DNA of 64,000 nt, from positions 119,214 through 183,213 of the forward strand of contig JAFTRA010000042.1 in NCBI GenBank assembly GCA_017462485.1. Reading direction: 5' to 3'. The translations under genes and the position numbers were made by a program. The DNA comes from Clostridia bacterium (GTDB lineage Bacteria; Bacillota; Clostridia; Oscillospirales; CAG-272). The notes under the pieces were generated by a model, which worked only from the letters and a program-made list of their open reading frames with translations, ran no database searches and had not been told where the DNA came from. Shown here in pieces: positions 4,126-51,090 of this stretch; position 1 is the stretch's first letter; each line of letters opens with the position of its first letter.

Positions 4126-5604
4126 TTGTCAACAGAACTTAACAAAAAATCAACCAACGCGTTAGCTTGGTCAAGCTTTGCCGAAATAATGGCAAAACTT
4201 GTAACTCCAATAGTAAATATAATACTAGCACGTTTATTAACACCTGATGCATTTGGGGCAGTTGCTACCATAACTATGGTTATAACCTTTGCCGAAGTTT
4301 TCACGGATGCTGGATTTCAAAAATATATTGTACAGCACAAATTTAAAAACAACGAAGAACTTAATAATGGTACGAACGTAGCTTTTCTTACAAATTTAAC
4401 GCTCTCCGCGTTGATAGTTATTATCATTGTAATATTCAGACATCAATTAGCAAAGCTTGTTGGAAGTGATAGCTTAGGAAACGCAATTGCGGTAGCTTCT
4501 CTTTCTATTATTCTTGTTGCTTTCTCAAGCATACAAATAGCACGATTCAGAAGAGATTTAGATTTCAAATCATTATTCTTCGTTAGAATAGGAGCTGCTA
4601 TCATACCTCTCATAGTTACCGTTCCTCTCGCATTTATTCTTCGTAATTTCTGGGCATTAGTGATTGGAACTCTATCAGTAAATCTCTTTAATGCTGTTAC
4701 ACTCACGATAAAATCGGATTGGAAACCTAAGTTCTTTTACAAATTTTCAATTTTTAAAGAAATGTTTTCATTTAGCGCTTGGACGCTATTAGAAAGCATT
4801 TCGATTTGGTTAACAGTAAACATTGATATTTTTATAATTGGTAATAAACTTAGTGATTATCACCTTGGAATTTACAAAACCTCCATACAAACAGTAAATT
4901 CTTCAATCGGTATGATTTCCGCTGCTATATTACCTGTTCTTTTTTCAACTTTATCAAAGTGTCAAAATGATTGTGTCGAATTGAAAAATACTTATTTAAA
5001 ATTTCAAAAATACACTTCTCTACTTTTAATTCCATTAGGTTTTGGGTTATTTCTTTACAACGATCTTGTAACGTACATATTGCTAGGTAAACAATGGAAC
5101 GAAGCTGCTCAATTTATTGGAGTGTTCGGTCTCGTTTATGCATTTTTAGTCCTGTTTTCTTATTTTGCAAGCGAGCTCTATAGAAGCACCGGTAATCCAA
5201 AGTTATCCATTATTATTCAATTAATACACATTGCAATTTTAATCATCTCTATTGAAATCGCTGTTTCTTATAGTTTTTCTCTTTTATGCATAGCGCGTGC
5301 AATTACACAAATGTGTTCTATCCTGGCACACATAATATTTGTTAGATTTTTGTATAAAATTCCAATGATAAAGAGCTTGCTTAACATTATGCCTGCATTA
5401 ACTTGTTCAATAATTATGCTCATTAGCGGAATTATTCTACGTCAAGTCTCATCATCTATTTGGTGGCAATTTGTCGTAATTCTAATATGTGTGATTATTT
5501 ATATATTCTCATTATTTCTTTTGTTCAGAAAAACAAAAAACGAACTTCTACAAACAGATATTGCACAAAAACTGTTTCATATTCTACCGAGATATAAACG
5601 TTGA
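4126..5604 (+). CDS. Wzx-type polysaccharide flippase (MOP superfamily)
   Basis: TTG start. 492 aa with about 12-14 TM helices. N-terminus AWSSFAEIMAKLVTPIVNIILARLLTPDAFG is typical of polysaccharide biosynthesis (Wzx) proteins. Confidence 0.8.
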   Translation: MSTELNKKSTNALAWSSFAEIMAKLVTPIVNIILARLLTPDAFGAVATITMVITFAEVFTDAGFQKYIVQHKFKNNEELNNGTNVAFLTNLTLSALIVIIIVIFRHQLAKLVGSDSLGNAIAVASLSIILVAFSSIQIARFRRDLDFKSLFFVRIGAAIIPLIVTVPLAFILRNFWALVIGTLSVNLFNAVTLTIKSDWKPKFFYKFSIFKEMFSFSAWTLLESISIWLTVNIDIFIIGNKLSDYHLGIYKTSIQTVNSSIGMISAAILPVLFSTLSKCQNDCVELKNTYLKFQKYTSLLLIPLGFGLFLYNDLVTYILLGKQWNEAAQFIGVFGLVYAFLVLFSYFASELYRSTGNPKLSIIIQLIHIAILIISIEIAVSYSFSLLCIARAITQMCSILAHIIFVRFLYKIPMIKSLLNIMPALTCSIIMLISGIILRQVSSSIWWQFVVILICVIIYIFSLFLLFRKTKNELLQTDIAQKLFHILPRYKR

Positions 5605-35945: not shown

Positions 35946-36320
35946 TAGACTGGGTGGGGCAATCGCGCGATAACACGCCGAAAGGTTTTATCGTGAGGAA
36001 AGTCCGGGCATCAGAGAGCAGGATAACGGATAACGTCCGTCTGGGGCGACCCACGGGAAAGTGCAACAGAAATAAACCGCCGTACCTGTACGGTAAGGAT
36101 GGAAAGGCGAGGTAAGAGCTCACCCGTTTCTATGGCAACATAGATCCGCTGTAAACCCTATCCGATGCAACGCCTTGAGCTTCGGGGCAACCCGAGCCGC
36201 TGCTCGCGGCTTATCATGGCGGCAGAGCCTTACGGCTTGAACTTAACGGTGACGTTAAGTGAAGATAGATGATTGCTGCGCCAAAAGGCGTACAGAACCC
36301 GGCTTACAAGCCCAGTCCAA
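35946..36320 (+). ncRNA. rnpB: RNase P RNA, bacterial type A
   Basis: Universal P4 halves GAGGAAAGTCCGGGC and ACAGAACCCGGCTTA. AGTGCAACAGAAA, GGTAAGAGCTCACC and AGATAGATGATTGC are present. P1 pairs GACTGGG (35948) with CCCAGTC (36311). Confidence 0.92.
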
Positions 36321-36348
36321 AGAAAGCAATCTGACAAAAACATAAAAC

Positions 36349-39077: not shown

Positions 39078-39335
39078 TTGACTTTCGCCTTTATTTGTGA
39101 TAGAATAACTCTGCCAAACAAATTTAATAATAGAATTAGCGGTATCTTTTTCTCTATGGGAGTATTATACCCTTTTTTTGTCATAATCTTTTTTATAATT
39201 CGGTAAAACCGCAAATTCCGTTTAAAGAGATTATGGCACAGGTGCTCTAATTCTATTTAAATTTGTTTGGCGACAATTGGAGTTTGCGTTTTTCGGTGCG
39301 CTGACTTCGGTTGGCGCATCTTTTTATTTTTATCA
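39078..39335 (+). promoter_or_regulatory. promoter plus structured 5' leader with terminator-like hairpin upstream of the LRR lipoprotein gene
   Basis: TTGACT, 17 nt, TAGAAT (39078-39106). Arms of about 25 nt at 39113-39139 and 39247-39271 are complementary. A GGTGCGC...GCGCATC hairpin (39295-39320) is followed by TTTTTATTTTT just before the GGAGGA RBS. Confidence 0.5.
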
Positions 39336-39354
39336 AACTTTGGAGGAAAAGAAA

Positions 39355-42036
39355 ATGAAAAAATCAAGAAAAATCGCAATATTTTTACTGTGCCTATGTT
39401 TAATTTATGCGAGTATATTTACATTTGCAGCTTGCAAGAATAACGAAACCGGGAAAGATACTAGCGGAGAGCAAAATTCCGAAAACGCAACTGAGGAAGA
39501 TGCTAGCGTAGAGCAAGGAGGTAATGAGTCAGAAACCGGTTCTAGTGAGCCGAACGACAACAATCAAAATTCCGAGAATGGTGAACAAAACACTGAAAAT
39601 GAATACGCAAGCAATGATTTACAGTATGAACTTTCAAATGACAAGACTCACTATGTACTTTGCGGTATAGGAGATTGCACTGATACAGATATTGTAATTC
39701 CAAGTACGTATAACAATCTCCCTGTTTCTTCTATTCTTAATCAGGCATTTATGGGTTGCACAACTCTTACAAACATAACTATCCCAAATAGCGTTACCTC
39801 TATTGGTGACAGTGCGTTCTACAATTGCACAAGCCTTGCAAGCATAACCATTCCCGATAGCGTTACTTCTGTTGGCTATAGGGCGTTCCTAGGTTGCACC
39901 AATTTACAGTATAACGAATATGATAATGCATATTACCTTGGCAATGAAAAGAATCCTTACGTTGTATTAGTGGAACCTAAGAGTAGAGACATCACTTCTT
40001 GTATTATCCCTAACGGCACGAAGGTTATCTATGAACAAGCATTCCGTAGTTGCACAAGCCTTACAAGCATAACTATCCCCAAAATCGTTACTTCTATTGG
40101 TAGATATGCGTTCCAAGATTGCTCAAGCCTTACAAGCTTAACTATTCCTGATGGCATCACTTTTATTGGTGACGATGCATTCATAAATTGCGCGGATTTG
40201 CAATACAACAAATATGATAACGCATGTTATCTTGGAAATGAGAATAACCCTTACTTAGCATTAATTAAAGCTACGAGTGCCGATATTGCTTCTTGTGCTA
40301 TTCATAACGATACAAAAGTTATTTATTACTCTGCGTTCAAAGATTGCGCAAAACTTACAAACATAAATATTCCTGAAAAGGTTATTTCGATTGGTAGGTA
40401 TGCGTTTGAGAATTGCACAGCTATCGAAGAAATCTATTTTAATGCCAATGCTATGCGTGATTTTGAGTTTAGAAATGGAACTTTCGGTAATGCAGGCAAT
40501 GACGAAAATGGAATAAAAGTTGTTATTGGTAAAAACGTTACTAGAATTCCTGCGCATCTTTTCGAATCTGACACTGAAACAACCCCATATTCACCTAAAA
40601 TAACAAGTGTAGAATTCGAAAATAGCAGTATATGCGAAAATATAGGTTTTTCTGCGTTCTCTCGTTGCACAAGCCTTACAAGCATAACCATTCCGAATAG
40701 CGTTACTTCTATTGGTAGTTATGCGTTCCAAGATTGCTCAAGTCTCACAAGCGTAACTATTCCCGATAGCGTTACTTCTATTGGTAGTTATGCGTTCCAA
40801 GATTGCTCAAGCCTCACAAGCATAACCATTCCGAATGGCGTTACTTCTATTGGTAGGAGTGCGTTCCTTGGTTGCACAAGCCTTACAAGTATAAATATTC
40901 CCGATAGCGTTACTTCTATTGGTAGTTATGCGTTCCAAGATTGCTCAAGCCTCACAAGCGTAACTATTCCCGATAGTGTCACTTCCATTGGTGATTGTGC
41001 ATTTCGTGATTGCTCAAGTCTCACAAGCGTAACTATTCCCGATAGCGTTACTTCTATTGGTGACAGTGCGTTCCAAGATTGCTCAAGCCTCACAAGCATA
41101 ACCATTCCGAATGGCGTTACTTCTATTGGTAGGAGTGCGTTCCTTGGTTGCACAAGCCTTACAAGTATAACTATTCCAGATAGCGTTACTTCTATTGGTG
41201 CTAGAGCGTTCCGCGGTTGCACGAGTCTTACAAGCGTAACTATTCCCGATAGCGTTACTTCTATTGGTAGTTATGCGTTCCAAGATTGCTCAAGCCTTAC
41301 AACCGTAATCATTCCCGATAGCGTTACTTCTATTGGTATGCGTGCTTTCGAGGGTTGCATAAGCCTTACAAACATAACTATTCCAGATAGTGTCACTTCC
41401 ATTGGTGATCTTGCATTTCGTGATTGCTCAAGCCTTACAAGTGTAAATATTCCCAATAGCGTTACTTCTATTGGTAGGAATGCGTTCCAAGATTGCTCAA
41501 GTCTCACAAGCGTAACTATTCCCGATAGCGTTACCTCTATTGGTGATCTTGCATTTCGTGATTGCTCAAGTCTCACAAGCGTAACTATTCCCGATAGCGT
41601 TACCTCTATTGGTGATCTTGCATTTCGTGATTGCTCAAGTCTCACAAGCGTAACTATTCCCGATAGCGTTACTTCTATTGGTGACAGTGCGTTCCTTGGT
41701 TGCACCAATTTACAGTATAACGAATATGATAATGCATATTACCTTGGCAATGAAAAGAATCCTTACGTTGTATTAGTGAAACCTAAGAGTAGAGACATCA
41801 CTTCTTGTATTATCCCTAACGGCACGAAGGTTATCTATGAACAAGCATTCCGTAGTTGCACAAGCCTTACAAACATATTCTACAAAGGTACAAAAAAAGA
41901 CTGGAATAGCATCTCTTTCGGTTACTATAATAATCTTGAAGATGTCGCTCGTTACTACTACTCCGAAACCGCTCCCACAGAAGAAGGAAGTTTCTGGCAT
42001 TATGACGAAAATGAAGAGATTGCGATTTGGGAATAA
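39355..42036 (+). CDS. BspA-type leucine-rich-repeat surface lipoprotein
   Basis: GGAGGA RBS. MKKSRKIAIFLLCLCLIYASIFTFAAC lipobox, an acidic N/E/S linker, then more than 25 LRR units of about 23 aa (SLTSVTIPDSVTSIGDSAFQDCS). The ORF track start at 39277 lies in the leader. Confidence 0.85.
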   Translation: MKKSRKIAIFLLCLCLIYASIFTFAACKNNETGKDTSGEQNSENATEEDASVEQGGNESETGSSEPNDNNQNSENGEQNTENEYASNDLQYELSNDKTHYVLCGIGDCTDTDIVIPSTYNNLPVSSILNQAFMGCTTLTNITIPNSVTSIGDSAFYNCTSLASITIPDSVTSVGYRAFLGCTNLQYNEYDNAYYLGNEKNPYVVLVEPKSRDITSCIIPNGTKVIYEQAFRSCTSLTSITIPKIVTSIGRYAFQDCSSLTSLTIPDGITFIGDDAFINCADLQYNKYDNACYLGNENNPYLALIKATSADIASCAIHNDTKVIYYSAFKDCAKLTNINIPEKVISIGRYAFENCTAIEEIYFNANAMRDFEFRNGTFGNAGNDENGIKVVIGKNVTRIPAHLFESDTETTPYSPKITSVEFENSSICENIGFSAFSRCTSLTSITIPNSVTSIGSYAFQDCSSLTSVTIPDSVTSIGSYAFQDCSSLTSITIPNGVTSIGRSAFLGCTSLTSINIPDSVTSIGSYAFQDCSSLTSVTIPDSVTSIGDCAFRDCSSLTSVTIPDSVTSIGDSAFQDCSSLTSITIPNGVTSIGRSAFLGCTSLTSITIPDSVTSIGARAFRGCTSLTSVTIPDSVTSIGSYAFQDCSSLTTVIIPDSVTSIGMRAFEGCISLTNITIPDSVTSIGDLAFRDCSSLTSVNIPNSVTSIGRNAFQDCSSLTSVTIPDSVTSIGDLAFRDCSSLTSVTIPDSVTSIGDLAFRDCSSLTSVTIPDSVTSIGDSAFLGCTNLQYNEYDNAYYLGNEKNPYVVLVKPKSRDITSCIIPNGTKVIYEQAFRSCTSLTNIFYKGTKKDWNSISFGYYNNLEDVARYYYSETAPTEEGSFWHYDENEEIAIWE
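39892..40066 (+). repeat. 175-bp direct repeat, copy 1 (inside the LRR gene)
   Basis: Identical to 41698-41872 except for one base (GGAACC vs GAAACC). The offset is exactly 1806 bp. Confidence 0.9.
40666..41700 (+). repeat. 15 tandem 69-bp (23-codon) LRR units, highly similar at DNA level
   Basis: Period read directly: TGC.CAAG.CT.ACAAG.(A/G)TAAC.ATTCC.(G/A)ATAG.GTTACTTCTATTGGT... repeated 15 times in frame. Confidence 0.9.
41698..41872 (+). repeat. 175-bp direct repeat, copy 2 (inside the LRR gene)
   Basis: See 39892-40066. Confidence 0.9.
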
Positions 42037-47983: not shown

Positions 47984-48502
47984 TCAGTCACATTCAAGTC
48001 CTGCGAAGAAATCATCGTAGGTGCAATTATATATTTTCTTCAAATTTACAAGAACGCTGATTTTTATGTTAAGCTCACCGCACTCGTACTTTTCATAAGT
48101 GCTTAGGCAAGAGGGAATAATATGAACTCGTTTTAGAAAGGCAAATTTCCAGCAATACATCGGTAAAAATCCTTATAATATCCCTATATTATCTCAAATT
48201 TTAACCTCGTCTTACAGGAAATTTGCTCTTTCTAAAATTTCTCTAAACCCTCGAGCCTTAATTTTAAGATGATTTTGGTGCTTGGCACTCGCAGCCAAGT
48301 ACGACCTTGCAAGAGTGATAAGTGCCGAAAGCACTAAAAATTCAGGCTTGAGGGCGAGTTCGTATTATTCCCTCTTGCCTATATATCACTTCCGCGTCGC
48401 TGGAGCTCAGCACAAAGCTTTTCCTGCGGATAAACCCGCATCTAAACGAAGCTTTTTTAAATTTTGCCCCATATTCCTATCACGTCTTAATTTTTGTTCC
48501 AT
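47984..48502 (-). pseudogene. XRE-family HTH regulator gene, disrupted by a frameshift and a 278-bp insertion
   Basis: The minus strand reads MEQKLRRDRNMGQNLKKLRLDAGLS, then a 1-nt frame slip near 48427, then QEKLCAELQRRGSDI, then the insertion, then STYEKYECGELNIKISVLVNLKKIYNCTYDDFFAGLECD and a stop. Confidence 0.7.
48104..48381. mobile_element. MITE-like non-autonomous element with 27-bp terminal inverted repeats
   Basis: TAGGCAAGAGGGAATAATATGAACTCG (48104-48130) vs the reverse complement of 48355-48381 (TAGGCAAGAGGGAATAATACGAACTCG): 26/27 identical. No ORF. Removing 48104-48381 rejoins the XRE coding halves in frame. Confidence 0.7.
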
Positions 48503-48554
48503 AACTATTCTCCTTAATTTTTAATTGTTGTAACTTGAGGGCATTTTATTAAAG

Positions 48555-48788
48555 GATACCACGGTCAAAAAAGATATTTCGGGGAGTTTTCGTATGGACT
48601 CGAACCCACGCGTCTTAATCACGGCATAGCCGTGGATATCATCAAAACGGAGTTTTGTATATCACCAAGGCGTGAGCCTTGTATATCATCATTGCGAAAG
48701 AGGATACAGCCTACGGCAGATGATATACACCTTCGGTGATGAGATACACGCTAACGCGTGATGATATGCCATTGCTTTCGCAATGGAT
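48555..48788. other. ornate nested hairpin/9-mer element A, with the 19-nt inverted-repeat cap at its outer end
   Basis: GATACCACGGTC+A6+G at 48555-48573. Three (G/T)ATATCA(T/C)C motifs, then three GATGA(T/G)AT motifs, interleaved with six different short hairpins (details in findings). Confidence 0.6.
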
Positions 48789-48823
48789 AAAAAAATTCGA
48801 CAAGTCAAAACTTGTCGATTTTT
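48789..48823. terminator. bidirectional terminator (tRNA-Gln on the minus strand; element A on the plus strand)
   Basis: A7, TCGACAAGT / ACTTGTCGA, T6. Confidence 0.85.
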
Positions 48824-48897
48824 TGGCAGGGGTAGCAAGATTCGAACTTACGATGAGGGAGTCAAAGTCCCTTGCCTTGCCGCTTGGCGATACCCCT
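48824..48897 (-). tRNA. tRNA-Gln (anticodon UUG), CCA encoded
   Basis: The reverse complement AGGGGTATCGCCAAGCGGCAAGGCAAGGGACTTTGACTCCCTCATCGTAAGTTCGAATCTTGCTACCCCTGCCA folds as a cloverleaf with anticodon loop CTTTGAC. Closely resembles E. coli tRNA-Gln. Confidence 0.95.
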
Positions 48898-48918
48898 ATG
48901 TATTTAAGCAACGGGTAG

Positions 48919-48947
48919 ATTATATCATAAAAATTTACTTGTGTCAA
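48919..48947 (-). promoter_or_regulatory. perfect consensus sigma-A promoter of tRNA-Gln
   Basis: On the minus strand: TTGACA, 17 nt, TATAAT, ending about 20 nt upstream of the mature 5' end. Confidence 0.8.
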
Positions 48948-49023
48948 TAGGAGAAATTAAAAGTTTTGAAAGTTCAAATTTTGTTTTTTAGGTGTTGTAC
49001 TTATCTTGGAATTACGAAAGCAG

Positions 49024-49052
49024 TTGAAATATTCGTAGATTTGTGATATAGT
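49024..49052 (+). promoter_or_regulatory. sigma-A type promoter of the 49091-50459 two-gene operon
   Basis: TTGAAA, 17 nt, TATAGT. Confidence 0.6.
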
Positions 49053-49090
49053 GGAGTAAAGAATGTTTAACAGATAGAAGAGGTGAGCAA

Positions 49091-49633
49091 ATGAAATATT
49101 CGTCAACAAATCGGTTTGAAGATTTTGAGTTTCATGATTCTATGCTATCATTGGTGTCATGGGATAACTCGCGTTTGGTCATCGCAGCAAAGCACCTAAA
49201 CGTGCACAAAGACGCAGCGCCAAACAATGCCGGAGCAGATATGGAGATATCCGAAGCCCGCATTACATTCTACGAAGCTCTAGTAAAAGAATTCGAGCCG
49301 GGGCGTGCGTGGAAAAGAGACGAGAGCGGCAATTCATATACCGATGATCCTTTAATTATTCACAACGGAAAAGCTGCGCACGATATGTTTGAAAATGAAT
49401 TACGCAATTCCATTACAGTTATTGGATTTACATCTGACAACGGATTGTATGAGCTTGGTGCGGTTGGCATTGATCCTTATTTTTCTGTTCGTTTTACTTT
49501 TTCCAAATTTGAAGTAGAATGGGATGATTATCGTGAAAAAGCATGGTACGAATTGCATAGACAGTATAAAAAAACGATTACTCTCGCAACTGAAAACGAT
49601 AATATTGAGCTTGACGCTCACATATTGACTTAA
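49091..49633 (+). CDS. hypothetical cytoplasmic protein (180 aa)
   Basis: GAGGTGAG RBS. No signal peptide and no motif I recognise. Followed after a 16-nt gap by the next gene, so probably co-transcribed with it. Confidence 0.6.
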   Translation: MKYSSTNRFEDFEFHDSMLSLVSWDNSRLVIAAKHLNVHKDAAPNNAGADMEISEARITFYEALVKEFEPGRAWKRDESGNSYTDDPLIIHNGKAAHDMFENELRNSITVIGFTSDNGLYELGAVGIDPYFSVRFTFSKFEVEWDDYREKAWYELHRQYKKTITLATENDNIELDAHILT

Positions 49634-49649
49634 GAAAGGCGGTGAGGCA

Positions 49650-50459
49650 ATGTTTGGAGCAATATACGGAGACGTAATCGGCTCGTACTATGAAGTTCAT
49701 TGTACAAAGAATTACAATTTTGAATTCAACAAAGACAGTTATTTCACAGATGACAGTGTTTTAATTGCAGCAGTATGTAAATCAATACTTAATAATCCCA
49801 CTGAAATATCAAAATGGAATCTTCACGCCCGTTCCAAAGAATACGCCTCACACTATCGCCAATATTATTCGTACCATCCTCACGCCGGATTTGGGAATAT
49901 GTTTGCCGCTTGGGCAAAAGATCCGTATGCAAGTAATGGGCACAGTTATGCCAACGGCGCATCTATGCGAGTCATTCCAATCGGATATGCATACGACACA
50001 TTGGAGCAAACACTCCTGCAAGTAAAATCAAGTTGTATTCCTACTCATAATCATCGGGAAGCAATCAAAGGCGCGCAAGCGGTTGCTGCGGCAATTTTTT
50101 TAGCGCGAAACGGAGAGGATAAGGAGCAAATTAAAGCATATTTAGAAAAAACATTTAAATATAAGCTATCAACCCCTCTCACCACAATTAAAGAAAACCA
50201 CGTGTTCGATAGCCGTACATCCTATAGCGTTCCACCTGCGATTATTGCGTTCTTGGAATCGACAGATTATGAAAGTGCAATCAGAAATGCAATTTCCCTC
50301 GGTGGTGATGCAGATACACAAGCGTGCATAGCGGGGGGTATCGCAGAAGCTTATTACAAAGAAATCCCCGAACATATCAAGCGCTTTTGCGATAACAGAA
50401 TTGACAGTTCTATCAAATCCGTCGTGAAAGAATTTAAACAAAAGTATTTCATTAGATAG
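49650..50459 (+). CDS. ADP-ribosylglycohydrolase family protein (ARH/DraG/Tri1-like)
   Basis: IYGDVIGSYYE, FTDDSVL, ANGASMRVIPIG, PTHNHREA, LGGDADTQACIAGGIAEAYY. This is the full set of metal-site motifs of the family. Confidence 0.85.
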   Translation: MFGAIYGDVIGSYYEVHCTKNYNFEFNKDSYFTDDSVLIAAVCKSILNNPTEISKWNLHARSKEYASHYRQYYSYHPHAGFGNMFAAWAKDPYASNGHSYANGASMRVIPIGYAYDTLEQTLLQVKSSCIPTHNHREAIKGAQAVAAAIFLARNGEDKEQIKAYLEKTFKYKLSTPLTTIKENHVFDSRTSYSVPPAIIAFLESTDYESAIRNAISLGGDADTQACIAGGIAEAYYKEIPEHIKRFCDNRIDSSIKSVVKEFKQKYFIR

Positions 50460-50733
50460 ATTTTTGTTTACAAGCATGGCGTTAAAAGTTCTGTAGAACG
50501 CGGATACTTTTAACTCCCATCATCGCCAAGGGAAATGTGCATCATCACGAGAAAATCCGTGCATCTAACTCGGCCACACACTACTGTATCTAAATTTGGC
50601 ACACATCACAACAAAAGCACCCACTGAAAATGGGTGATGTTCTTAGCTGAGAATTTGTATTTTGACAAAAGTGCAAGCATCGCATTTGACTAGTCGAATG
50701 CATTATGGGCTAAGCCCCACCCCTTATAACAAC

Positions 50734-50783
50734 AGAAAGAGATAACAAATCGGTTTGTAGTCGAAATGTTATCTCTTTTTTCT
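50734..50783. terminator. terminator-like hairpin at the inner end of element B
   Basis: AAAGAGATAACA / TGTTATCTCTTT 12-bp stem with a 19-nt loop. TTTTTCT follows on the plus strand and an A-rich run precedes it. Confidence 0.6.
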
Positions 50784-50800
50784 GCTCGTTTTAGTTTAGA

Positions 50801-51036
50801 GTTATGAGGCTCGCAAAGCCCGCATTCGCGGGATTTTATGCTCGCCGTTATGAATTTGCTACACAAATGTTATGATATGATTGCCCATTGAACCTTAAAC
50901 TTGGCGAAGCCAATCATAACAATGCGAAGCATTTCATAACTCATAACTTGCCGGCAATGGCAATCATAACTTAGCGTGATTTGTCCGCTAAGGACAGCAC
51001 GCTAATGGTGGGTGCTCTTTTTTTGACCGTGGTATC
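50801..51036. other. ornate nested hairpin/heptamer element B, with the 19-nt inverted-repeat cap at its outer end
   Basis: Three GTTATGA then four TCATAAC motifs interleaved with seven short hairpins. Ends with T7+GACCGTGGTATC (51018-51036), the reverse complement of 48555-48573. Confidence 0.6.
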
Positions 51037-51090
51037 GGTGACTCGTTTATCGTTCGCAAAGCGAACATAACCGTAAGAGAACCTTTAATT

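Follow-up and report, generated by a model that had tools for sequence, protein, structure and literature searches.

A tRNA-Gln-linked cassette site with modular transcription-unit ends as the probable source of an 18-nt inverted repeat in a gut Clostridia bacterium

REP/BIME elements of enterobacteria are mosaics of short palindromes arrayed with alternating orientation; they occupy intergenic positions after genes or terminators, and their copy number varies between strains. The palindromic ladders of the locus described here are likewise mosaics of short palindromes that lie after genes or terminators in strain-variable copy number, but the sequences are unrelated, no RAYT-type transposase was seen and the two halves of a ladder are complementary over a long range. 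Integrons and attC/CALIN cassettes offer a second comparison, in that a structured element begins at or inside the stop codon of the cassette gene and its structure is conserved above its sequence. Integron cassettes are promoterless, however, while the present cassettes have their own promoters; the hairpin here reads GTT...AAC, whereas attC sites follow the order R'' (RYYYAAC) ... R' (GTTRRRY); and the module here is followed by a terminator and a ladder. Neither IntI nor attI was found in the window (the whole stretch of 64,000 nt that was analysed) or in L085, L086 and L087, three related loci examined over 5 kb to each side of the query gene. The locus also recalls tRNA-targeted integrative islets, as the cassettes adjoin a tRNA gene and, in L085, a 30-nt direct repeat consisting of the last 15 nt of tRNA-Gln and the start of its terminator brackets 2.6 kb with two cassettes. 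The window differs from such islets in having no integrase and no partial tRNA-Gln copy (an att-like direct repeat of the tRNA 3' end was searched for with up to three mismatches), and its cassette lies upstream of and divergent from the tRNA, not downstream of the 3' end.

The rAID-1 and polyimmunity loci of Bacteroidales (Ross et al., bioRxiv 10.1101/471110) share with the present arrays co-oriented small genes including immunity-type ones, repetitive intergenic sequences, low G+C content and strain-to-strain variation. They differ in that the host here belongs to a Clostridia lineage, the array head is a tRNA-Gln with no XerD-like recombinase there, each gene possesses its own promoter and terminator, and the repeats are a 3' module and Gut-1 ladders. 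Several co-directional small genes, some of them matching immunity families and with repeated sequences in the intergenic gaps, were found in L085 and L087, whereas the window holds a single cassette. The Gut-1 motif itself (RF01706) was published as a non-coding RNA candidate from the 'human gut only', with no function given (Weinberg et al. 2010, PMC2864571).

The window corresponds to positions 119,214-183,213 of contig JAFTRA010000042.1 (GCA_017462485.1; Clostridia bacterium, CAG-272), forward strand, and the host of the locus is a gut Clostridia, Oscillospiraceae-like bacterium. The features of the locus, in window coordinates, are the following.

48555-48573, minus strand: left copy of the inverted repeat, minus-strand reading CTTTTTTGACCGTGGTATC, putative tail closing the tRNA-Gln unit.
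48574-48619, minus strand: spacer from ladder A to the tail, with a T-arm-like GGGTTCGAGTCC and a small hairpin, as read from sequence and fold.
48620-48790, no strand assigned: ladder A, a palindromic array of Gut-1 architecture, under the Rfam threshold.
48791-48823, minus strand: intrinsic terminator of tRNA-Gln, stem at 48797-48818, then a T-run.
48824-48897, minus strand: tRNA-Gln(UUG), 58.9 bits.
48919-48947, minus strand: tRNA promoter TTGACA-17-TATAAT, 12/12 match.
48973-51085, plus strand: strain-variable segment of 2113 bp, replaced by 115 bp in L006 to L010.
49024-49052, plus strand: cassette promoter TTGAAA-17-TATAGT, part of a promoter module common to L052, L085 and L087.
49091-49633, plus strand: gene for a DUF6304-like N-terminal domain, 180 aa, no Pfam match.
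49650-50459, plus strand: ADP-ribosylglycohydrolase (ARH) gene (ADP_ribosyl_GH, E = 1.5e-30).
50450-50609, plus strand: conserved 3' module of about 160 nt, beginning at the stop codon (nhmmer E = 1e-45).
50612-50645, plus strand: cassette terminator hairpin, T-run decayed; the left arm is in addition complementary to 51008-51026.
50736-50783, plus strand: second hairpin, then a T-run, directly upstream of ladder B.
50800-50972, no strand assigned: ladder B, three GTTATGA with hairpins, then four TCATAAC with hairpins.
51006-51036, plus strand: terminator right arm GGTGGGTGCTC, then T7, then GACCGTGGTATC; includes the right repeat copy (51017-51036).
51037-51085, plus strand: tail X (GGTGACTCGTTTATCG...), homologous to the L009 tails and to the 115-bp remnant of L006.

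The tRNA-Gln gene with its own promoter and terminator, and the two-gene operon with its own promoter, were thus found as the first-pass annotation had described them. The same holds for the disrupted XRE gene just outside the left end, which is split by a 277-bp MITE with 27-nt terminal inverted repeats (48105-48381); in L006 and L008 this element is absent and the XRE ORF is intact. The 180-aa ORF represents only the N-terminal domain of a DUF6304-like protein of about 312 aa, its Cys-rich C-terminal domain being missing, and in comparison with L086 about 486 nt are missing from the gene. tRNA-Gln adjoins DUF6304 or ARH genes in four genomes, co-directionally in two of them (L052 and L085) and divergently in the window and in L092, and neighbouring cassette genes in the relatives include WapI immunity, Cys_rich_CPCC and DUF2310. 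The cargo resembles the immunity-type cassette genes that adjoin tRNA-Gln in several species. Judging only by family names and neighbours, we infer that it encodes putative immunity-type proteins, and the ARH would undo ADP-ribosylation caused by a toxin. The PADLOC defence-system models matched neither cargo protein, and no ARH relatives were found in the viral contigs searched.

The left repeat copy, GATACCACGGTCAAAAAA (48555-48572), is perfectly complementary to 51019-51036 across 18 nt, and the match grows to 19-20 nt when the A6/A7 length difference is permitted. Its 12-mer core has two sites only in the window, even at one mismatch, and 0.13 are expected per window. Perfect 18-mer inverted pairs 50-3000 nt apart in the window are confined to this repeat and the terminal repeats of the MITE, and any such pair occurred in just 0.5% of 200 windows simulated by a first-order Markov model. 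The earlier description of an inverted repeat of about 19 nt, beyond chance and with its copies at the outer edges of two structured elements, A and B, was thus borne out, and both elements fold much better than shuffled sequence (z about -6). The flanks TTAAAG and GGTGAC form no target-site duplication, again as annotated, and no recombinase or transposase domain is present among the ORFs of at least 170 aa in the 64-kb window, in agreement with the earlier statement that it holds no recombinase. Further copies of the 18-mer, element A, element B, the L009 tail or the MITE were absent from the rest of the window. Exact scans for the 18-mer in a genome and a metagenome collection, from both of which the species is absent, returned 36 and 26 loci, respectively, all chance matches in unrelated taxa with dissimilar flanks, and viral contigs gave 0 matches. 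Two candidate functions for the repeat were rejected: TTGACC as an outward -35 box, since the promoter scan was empty at both copies, and a split bidirectional terminator, since the order stem, A-run ... T-run, stem is the reverse of a terminator.

The strain comparison comprised about ten metagenome contigs in three haplotypes, at contig level only, where a low-frequency inversion could go unseen. L006, L007 and L008 are about 99.2-99.4% identical to the window over the peptidase-side flank, yet they are without 48973-51085, the segment carrying the operon, element B and the right repeat copy. The same contigs retain 48382-48972, which includes the tRNA, ladder A and the left copy, with zero base substitutions, the sole differences being one or two gaps, one of which is a run of N in the L006 scaffold. 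The breakpoints lie at 48972/48973, at the tRNA promoter, and at 51085/51086, 5 nt beyond the peptidase stop codon, and are therefore 418 bp and 49 bp off the repeats. G+C content is 0.38-0.41 in the variable segment versus 0.46-0.49 in the flanks. The first-pass annotation had suggested that the DNA bracketed by the repeat is mobile or invertible: the segment 48973-51085 is accessory within the species, but the inverted repeats are not its bounds. In place of the empty site predicted at 48554/51037, the contigs showed the breakpoints given above with the left repeat, element A and the tRNA retained, and the predicted inverted orientation did not occur among the contigs carrying the segment, which all have one orientation. 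Comparison with the next genus was uninformative, as the peptidase there is 67% identical but the surrounding genes are unrelated.

The 115-bp filler aligns end to end with 50581-50631 plus 51003-51076 (78% identity, z about 9.6) and, to judge from this alignment, preserves in diverged form the end of a 3' module, a terminator and a tail, as the remnant of a cassette end. The core of the filler is degenerate, and the perfect inverted repeat is therefore confined to the window haplotype. In L009, a third contig, tRNA-Gln is followed by a plain terminator and then by a stretch 100% identical to window 51006-51041, with homology continuing further, so that a tail of 36-40 nt stands directly after the tRNA-Gln terminator. 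The 19-mer thus follows a terminator T-run in this contig, as a terminator-associated word would; the earlier annotation had named a common word of this kind, scattered through the genome, as an outcome opposed to a mobile cassette. L009 stops 70 nt past the tail, and has 153 nt in common with the window against an assembly k of 141; instead of being an allele, it may represent a second, paralogous tRNA-Gln locus or have arisen from a join made during assembly. A MatE look-up intended to extend its haplotype gave only the window haplotype and contigs breaking inside the MITE. A simple inversion linking L009 to the window haplotype was rejected, since it would never put GACCGTGGTATC-GGTGA downstream of a tRNA co-oriented with the peptidase.

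The 3' module, with which element B begins, contains a hairpin that covaries, with compensatory changes across copies, an invariant block, CCCATCATCGCCAA, and the sequence GCATCTAAATyGGmCACACA twice; tandem repeats of 20-26 nt number one to three in the module. It recurs after unrelated small genes in other Clostridia MAGs and stands behind five different genes in L085, L086 and L087, its start always coinciding with the stop codon. The promoter module recurs in other genomes as well, namely those listed with the cassette promoter. The 3'-module pattern was absent from viral contigs, the L085 modules gave no BLAST match to phages and plasmids, and the island matched phages at tRNA-Gln genes only.

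Elements A and B each include a palindromic ladder. Ladder A has ATATCATC(A) three times, with a short hairpin after every copy, and then three copies of the complement, (T)GATGATAT, each beside a short hairpin. The architecture of ladder B was found once in the window and in 0 of 50 shuffles. In Gut-1, three short hairpins separate four copies of a word of 7-9 nt, and the same architecture was recognized in the window ladders by eye and by script. The published seeds lie after a tRNA and terminator or after a gene stop and terminator, and the window ladders, too, directly follow an intrinsic terminator, although this is not a formal criterion of the family. The words themselves differ, GATGATAT and GTTATGA in the window versus GUGAAAU in Gut-1. 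The published motif is moreover one half, whereas an inverted second half is present at the seeds and the window ladders also consist of inverted halves, with mutually complementary words. Ladder A runs antisense then sense, while ladder B and the L085 ladders run sense then antisense. At the equivalent positions in L085, the ladders are opposite-strand Gut-1 pairs scoring 63.5, 53.5 and 51.9 bits (gathering threshold 50). In the window, the best and only Gut-1 match (48699-48772, plus strand, in ladder A) reached 18.2 bits with E = 3.9, under the threshold, and Rfam searches in gathering and E-value modes returned no family for elements A and B other than this non-significant one.

We regard the locus as probably a tRNA-Gln-linked cassette site with end-modules, and not a transposon or a repeat-bounded invertible segment. 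Each transcription unit would close with a modular end-piece, in which an intrinsic terminator leads to a short tail, usually with a Gut-1-type ladder in between, and this tail would open with a T-run followed by GACCGTGGTATC; on sequence grounds, the T-run and this word are the tail that follows a terminator. The end-piece of the tRNA-Gln unit on the minus strand would thus comprise terminator, ladder A and tail, and that of the DUF6304N-ARH cassette on the plus strand 3' module, terminators, ladder B and tail. Since the two units are divergent, the paralogous tails point in opposite directions and give the appearance of an inverted repeat of 18 nt. What strains gain or lose is the cassette itself (48973-51085), which has the tRNA promoter on one side and, on the other, the stop codon at which the convergent peptidase gene ends. 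Cassettes may turn over when the conserved non-coding modules recombine, or may integrate at the 3' end and terminator of the tRNA gene, with catalysis by functions that would be encoded elsewhere, and the divergent layout of the window might be the inverted form of the co-directional tRNA-then-cassette layout of its relatives.

Alternatively, T6-7 plus GACCGTGGTATC might be a site-specific recombination core, att- or attC-like, at which a recombinase encoded elsewhere inserts, deletes or inverts cassettes and ladder blocks; the two inverted copies would then be functional sites and the 2.5-kb segment could invert. We consider this unlikely, even if several observations are in line with it. 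The 18-mer occurs in three junction contexts, and at the left copy the flanks differ on both sides and homology to the other tails ends precisely at the end of the 12-mer, a sharp edge that would also fit a recombination core. The ladder blocks are flanked by duplicates of either a T-run or a terminator right arm, the orientation of the tRNA relative to the cassette differs among species, the tRNA-3'-end repeats around the two L085 cassettes are att-like, and the tandem repeats of the 3' module resemble arm-type binding sites. On the other hand, no recombinase was found in the 64-kb window, nor in the 5 kb that flank the query gene on each side in L085, L086, L087 and L092, the 12-mer is not conserved in the cassettes of other species, the strain difference breaks away from the 18-mer and the contigs include no inverted form.

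Highly improbable is a non-autonomous transposon-like cassette, or MITE-like composite, spanning 48555-51036 and ending at the 18-19-nt inverted repeats. Such an element would account for a perfect repeat, improbable by chance, at the outer edges of structured regions, for an interior self-contained in its promoters and terminators, and for the vicinity of a true MITE, but it is already contradicted by the strain comparison, in which the cargo-less strains keep the left end and the tRNA and break away from the repeats. The lack of a target-site duplication and of a transposase, the lack of a second copy of the 18-mer or of either element in the window, and the chance nature of the 18-mer matches in the two collections also speak against it. 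A coincidence of two T-rich post-terminator sequences with no common origin is scarcely credible, for although six or seven of the 18 bases form a homopolymer run of a kind common after terminators, the simulated windows and the 12-mer expectation argue otherwise and the right copy belongs to a tail of 36-60 nt that is conserved in L009 and diverged in L006.

The preferred reading, a cassette site with paralogous end-modules, corrects a misreading, since a perfect inverted repeat around self-contained genes looks mobile and the strain comparison indicates a by-product of the end-modules instead. It also provides Gut-1, an orphan motif since 2010, with a genomic setting: in gut Clostridia the motif forms inverted pairs after the terminators of tRNAs and single-gene cassettes, within arrays of immunity-type genes that vary between strains. 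One may ask, given this setting, whether Gut-1 acts as an RNA or instead as a structure in DNA or an array for protein binding. It is conceivable, though doubtful, that Gut-1 is half of a palindromic post-terminator ladder which, together with the 3' module and the promoter module, makes up an undescribed, tRNA-anchored cassette platform functionally comparable to integrons that shuffles immunity-type genes between strains of gut Clostridia, with the terminator T-run and tail and the tRNA 3' end serving as sites for a recombinase encoded elsewhere. Were the arrays to capture cassettes in this way, the Firmicutes would have an equivalent of integrons and of the Bacteroidales rAID clusters, with implications for the routes by which gut bacteria gain protection from ADP-ribosylating and other contact-dependent toxins.

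Finally, the 180-aa protein was modelled with AlphaFold2, which returned a beta-rich structure with a pLDDT of 88. Searching the model against the PDB gave nothing significant (best E = 0.013, query-length-normalised TM-scores of at most 0.26); the fold search contained a weak hint to 8owu, a polymorphic-toxin immunity protein.

The sequence GATACCACGGTCAAAAAA at 48555-48572 is complementary over 18 of 18 nt to 51019-51036, and over 19-20 nt if a run of six A residues is allowed to face seven, confirming the inverted repeat of about 19 nt described at these positions by the first-pass annotation. The 12-mer core occurs at only two sites across the 64-kb window, even at one mismatch. Apart from the terminal repeats of the adjacent MITE, the window contained no other perfect 18-mer inverted pair spaced by 50-3000 nt, and any such pair was found in only 0.5% of 200 windows simulated with a first-order Markov model.

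Features between the two copies of the inverted repeat
48620-48790, ladder A, built on the word GATGATAT
48824-48897, minus strand, tRNA-Gln(UUG)
promoter of tRNA-Gln, TTGACA-17-TATAAT, 12/12 match
terminator of tRNA-Gln, hairpin and T-run
cassette promoter, TTGAAA-17-TATAGT, ahead of the two ORFs
49091-49633, ORF 1, 180 aa, no Pfam match
49650-50459, ORF 2, ADP-ribosylglycohydrolase (ARH), E = 1.5e-30
50800-50972, ladder B, built on the word GTTATGA

Both the tRNA-Gln with its own promoter and terminator and the two-gene operon with a separate promoter had been proposed from the bare sequence and were borne out, and no recombinase or transposase domain was detected among window ORFs of 170 aa or more, in agreement with the absence of a recombinase noted earlier. 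Elements A and B, the structured regions beside the left and right copies that contain the two ladders, both folded about 6 standard deviations better than their shuffles. The cassette terminator is separated from a second terminator by some 95 nt (50640-50735) that carry the palindrome GCATTTGACTAGTCGAATGC together with a small GC hairpin; this spacer had no relatives in any fetched locus and was negative in a promoter scan.

Part of the ENA contig ERZ28018778:k141_866621 was 100% identical to the window, and contigs from other metagenomes were reached via a peptidase variant (P0120) 99% identical to that of the window. On the peptidase side the conspecific contigs L006, L007 and L008 showed 99.2-99.4% identity to the window, with L006 (98.6%) and L008 (99.9%) also covering the MatE side. 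All three carried 115 bp in place of window 48973-51085 (2113 bp), and matched 48382-48972, comprising the tRNA promoter, tRNA-Gln, terminator, element A and left repeat copy, with zero base substitutions and one or two gaps, one being an N run in the L006 scaffold. On this alignment the variable unit starts immediately ahead of the tRNA promoter and stops 5 nt beyond the peptidase stop codon. Its left end thus falls 418 bp to the inside of the left repeat, and its right end passes the right repeat by 49 bp. Since these strains keep the left repeat, the tRNA and element A, the inverted repeat does not form the ends of the variable unit. The mobile or invertible cassette put forward by the first-pass annotation thus survives as to its accessory cargo, while the strain breakpoints speak against the repeat as its ends. 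From these alignments we conclude that the real accessory unit is probably the cassette 48973-51085, as supported by its low G+C content (0.38-0.41 vs 0.46-0.49 in the flanks).

In the source samples, Logan contigs are interrupted at three places, namely the tRNA 3' end, an invariant block (50522) of the 3' module described below and the interior of the MITE, which is consistent with the modules being multi-copy or polymorphic within the community. Two independent sample assemblies (Logan contigs L004 and L005) also end inside ladder B, at 50898 and 50923, which hints at heterogeneous or repeated sequence inside this ladder in those communities.

As for the cargo, the 180-aa protein corresponds to the N-terminal domain of DUF6304-like proteins of about 312 aa and stops exactly where the Cys-rich C-terminal domain would start. 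In the related locus L086 a full-length DUF6304-like gene is directly followed by the ARH gene, an arrangement of which the window lacks about 486 nt. The gene was cut by this internal deletion (window 49624-49650 vs L086 4639-5124), whose end is separated from the downstream ARH start codon by 19 nt. The short form may still be functional, because stand-alone DUF6304-like forms of 157-173 aa occur in other genomes, where they often adjoin a MatE gene (L053-L058). Its AlphaFold2 model was confident (pLDDT 88); a comparison with the PDB returned no significant neighbour, and the second-ranked, non-significant match was a polymorphic-toxin immunity protein. The ARH has many homologues at 75-90% identity in Clostridia and Ruminococcaceae MAGs. 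ARH-family proteins serve as immunity proteins against ADP-ribosylating toxins, as exemplified by Tri1 of Serratia. The cassette genes of the relatives include WapI immunity, Cys_rich_CPCC and DUF2310 genes, which support the explanation of the segment as a cassette.

The first ~160 nt of element B (50450-50609) constitute a non-coding 3' module that was found behind five different genes in the related loci L085, L086 and L087 (DUF6304-like, 133-aa ORF, ARH, HTH and DUF2310), always with the stop codon inside its conserved TACATAG. Its first hairpin shows compensatory changes (AAAAG/CUUUU vs GCGC/GCGC) in two sequence lineages only. The module contains one to three tandem copies of a ~20-26-nt unit, GCATCTAAATCGGMCACACA, whose number varies among cassettes (window 50561-50605; L085 3474-3521 and 4425-4475; L087 1765-1835) and which may be a protein-binding site. 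One copy of the module in L087 (4620-4850) is broken by an insertion of about 200 nt in place of the first hairpin.

In L085-L087 the 3' module is followed by an intrinsic terminator, a ladder and a promoter module common to the cassettes. Each ladder consists of a 7-9-nt word repeated three to four times, with a short hairpin per copy, and then of the reverse-complement word three to four times, again with hairpins. Those of L085 matched the Rfam family Gut-1 (RF01706) as pairs on opposite strands, with bit scores of 63.5, 53.5 and 51.9 where the gathering score is 50. Ladders A and B have the architecture and the post-terminator position of these pairs; no Gut-1 match reached the Rfam threshold in the window, the sole match being ladder A at 18 bits. 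A scan for the ladder architecture returned ladder B alone in the window and none in 50 shuffles. Ladders have different words (GTGAAAT, GTGATAT, GATGAAATC, GATGATAT, GTTATGA), and the complement of the word is always present within the same ladder, reflecting either helix-level covariation or concerted evolution of both halves.

Gut-1 was published as a candidate ncRNA of human gut metagenomes only, with no assigned function (Weinberg 2010, PMC2864571). The flanks of the published seed alignment agree with the setting described here: one seed follows a tRNA and terminator and another follows a gene stop and terminator, and both carry an inverted second half outside the Rfam model. The published motif appears to cover one half of a longer palindrome. 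The former seed, BAAZ01025322.1 (Weinberg 2010, supplement file 95), stands directly after the tRNA and terminator and has ATATCAC words in its second half; the tRNA was read as a probable tRNA-Arg(ACG) from its anticodon loop.

The conspecific contig L009 has the L006 version of the peptidase side, and its tRNA-Gln is followed by a plain terminator (AAAAAGAGCACCCACC-GTTT-TTGGTGGGTGCTCTTTTTTT). After it comes GACCGTGGTATCGGTGATTCG..., a 100% match to window 51006-51041 that faces the other way with respect to the peptidase gene. Further out, the L009 tail and the right flank of the window share short stretches (aligned as CTCGTTTAT) and can be aligned by eye with a 12-nt indel. In L006, the 115-bp filler could be aligned over its entire length with 50581-50631 plus 51003-51076 (78% identity, z ~9.6 vs shuffles), and corresponds to the last 3'-module repeat, the terminator and a diverged tail in which the word reads GTTATGTGGATAGCG. 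Together, the L009 tail and the L006 filler indicate that the terminator T-run, GACCGTGGTATC and GGTGAYTCG... form a tail module after terminators at this locus, and that the perfect inverted repeat is confined to the window haplotype. The 19-mer is thus a terminator-associated word here, standing behind the tRNA-Gln terminator in L009. This contig ends 70 nt past the tail, and the segment that it has in common with the window upstream of the divergence measures 153 nt, compared with an assembly k of 141. L009 may therefore represent another tRNA-Gln locus or an artificial join made in assembly; whichever its origin, it places the tail after the terminator of a tRNA-Gln within this population.

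The left copy shares only its T-run and 12-mer with the other tails, and homology ends exactly at the end of the 12-mer. This sharp edge, together with the T-runs and terminator arms that flank the ladder blocks in duplicate, would suit a tail acting as a recombination site, a reading that we consider unlikely. A transposon or inverton bounded by the inverted repeat appears very unlikely, as it would not leave one repeat and half of the interior behind. We conclude instead that the repeat probably marks two paralogous end-modules rather than the termini of a mobile element.

The tRNA-Gln adjoins DUF6304 or ARH genes in four genomes, co-directionally in L052 (tRNA then DUF6304) and L085 (tRNA then DUF6304, 133-aa ORF, ARH and further genes), divergently in L092 (tRNA and ARH) and the window (tRNA and DUF6304N-ARH). 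On the plus strand of the window, the parts facing left come first (the reverse-complement tail, ladder A, the tRNA and its promoter) and are followed by those facing right (the cassette promoter with its genes, the 3' module, the terminators, ladder B and the tail). Compared with the co-directional arrays of L052 and L085, the tRNA unit would thus be flipped, so that two tails lying as direct repeats in the L085-type layout would read as an inverted repeat in the window.

In L085, 2.6 kb with two cassettes are bracketed by a 30-nt direct repeat made of the last 15 nt of tRNA-Gln and the terminator start, and paralogues of the tRNA's terminator and ladder start stand behind each cassette. Between two cassettes (4537-4683), an inverted (GGAATAGGGATTCGAAC) and a direct (AATCCCTATTCCCCA) copy of the tRNA-Gln 3' end lie on either side of about 100 nt of hairpins. 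A paralogue of the tRNA terminator comes after them, and the arrangement looks like an att-type scar. No partial tRNA-Gln copy was found in the window. Cassette exchange might proceed by homologous recombination between conserved flanks or modules, by integration at the tRNA 3' end and terminator, or by a dedicated recombinase acting on the tail.

The elements had no match in the phage or plasmid collections searched, the patterns tried were not found in viral contigs, and the locus fully fits no defined family. Among the closest, the Gut-1 motif agrees in architecture and position, although the window ladders miss its score threshold; rAID-1 or polyimmunity immunity-gene cassette arrays are also close, but the window locus has no recombinase. 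The value of the locus lies mainly in the genomic context it gives to Gut-1 and in the suggested cassette platform anchored at a tRNA gene.

Outside the left end, an XRE-family HTH gene is interrupted by a MITE-like insertion of 277 bp (48105-48381) whose 27-nt terminal inverted repeats are 96% complementary. The disruption had been recognised at first reading and is confirmed by L006 and L008, which lack the MITE and have an intact XRE ORF (81 aa). Logan contigs breaking within the MITE suggest that it is multi-copy. Its target-site duplication is ambiguous because the end of the MITE itself (TAGGCAAGAGG) is similar to the sequence of the empty site (…GATATAGGCAGAAGCAC…).

Elsewhere, a large LRR_5 repeat protein gene (window 39277-42036; L006 16100-17000) contains many internal DNA repeats 75-80% identical, and the strains fall to 78% identity there vs 99% elsewhere. 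A full-length bacterial class A RNase P RNA lies at 35947-36322 (247 bits).
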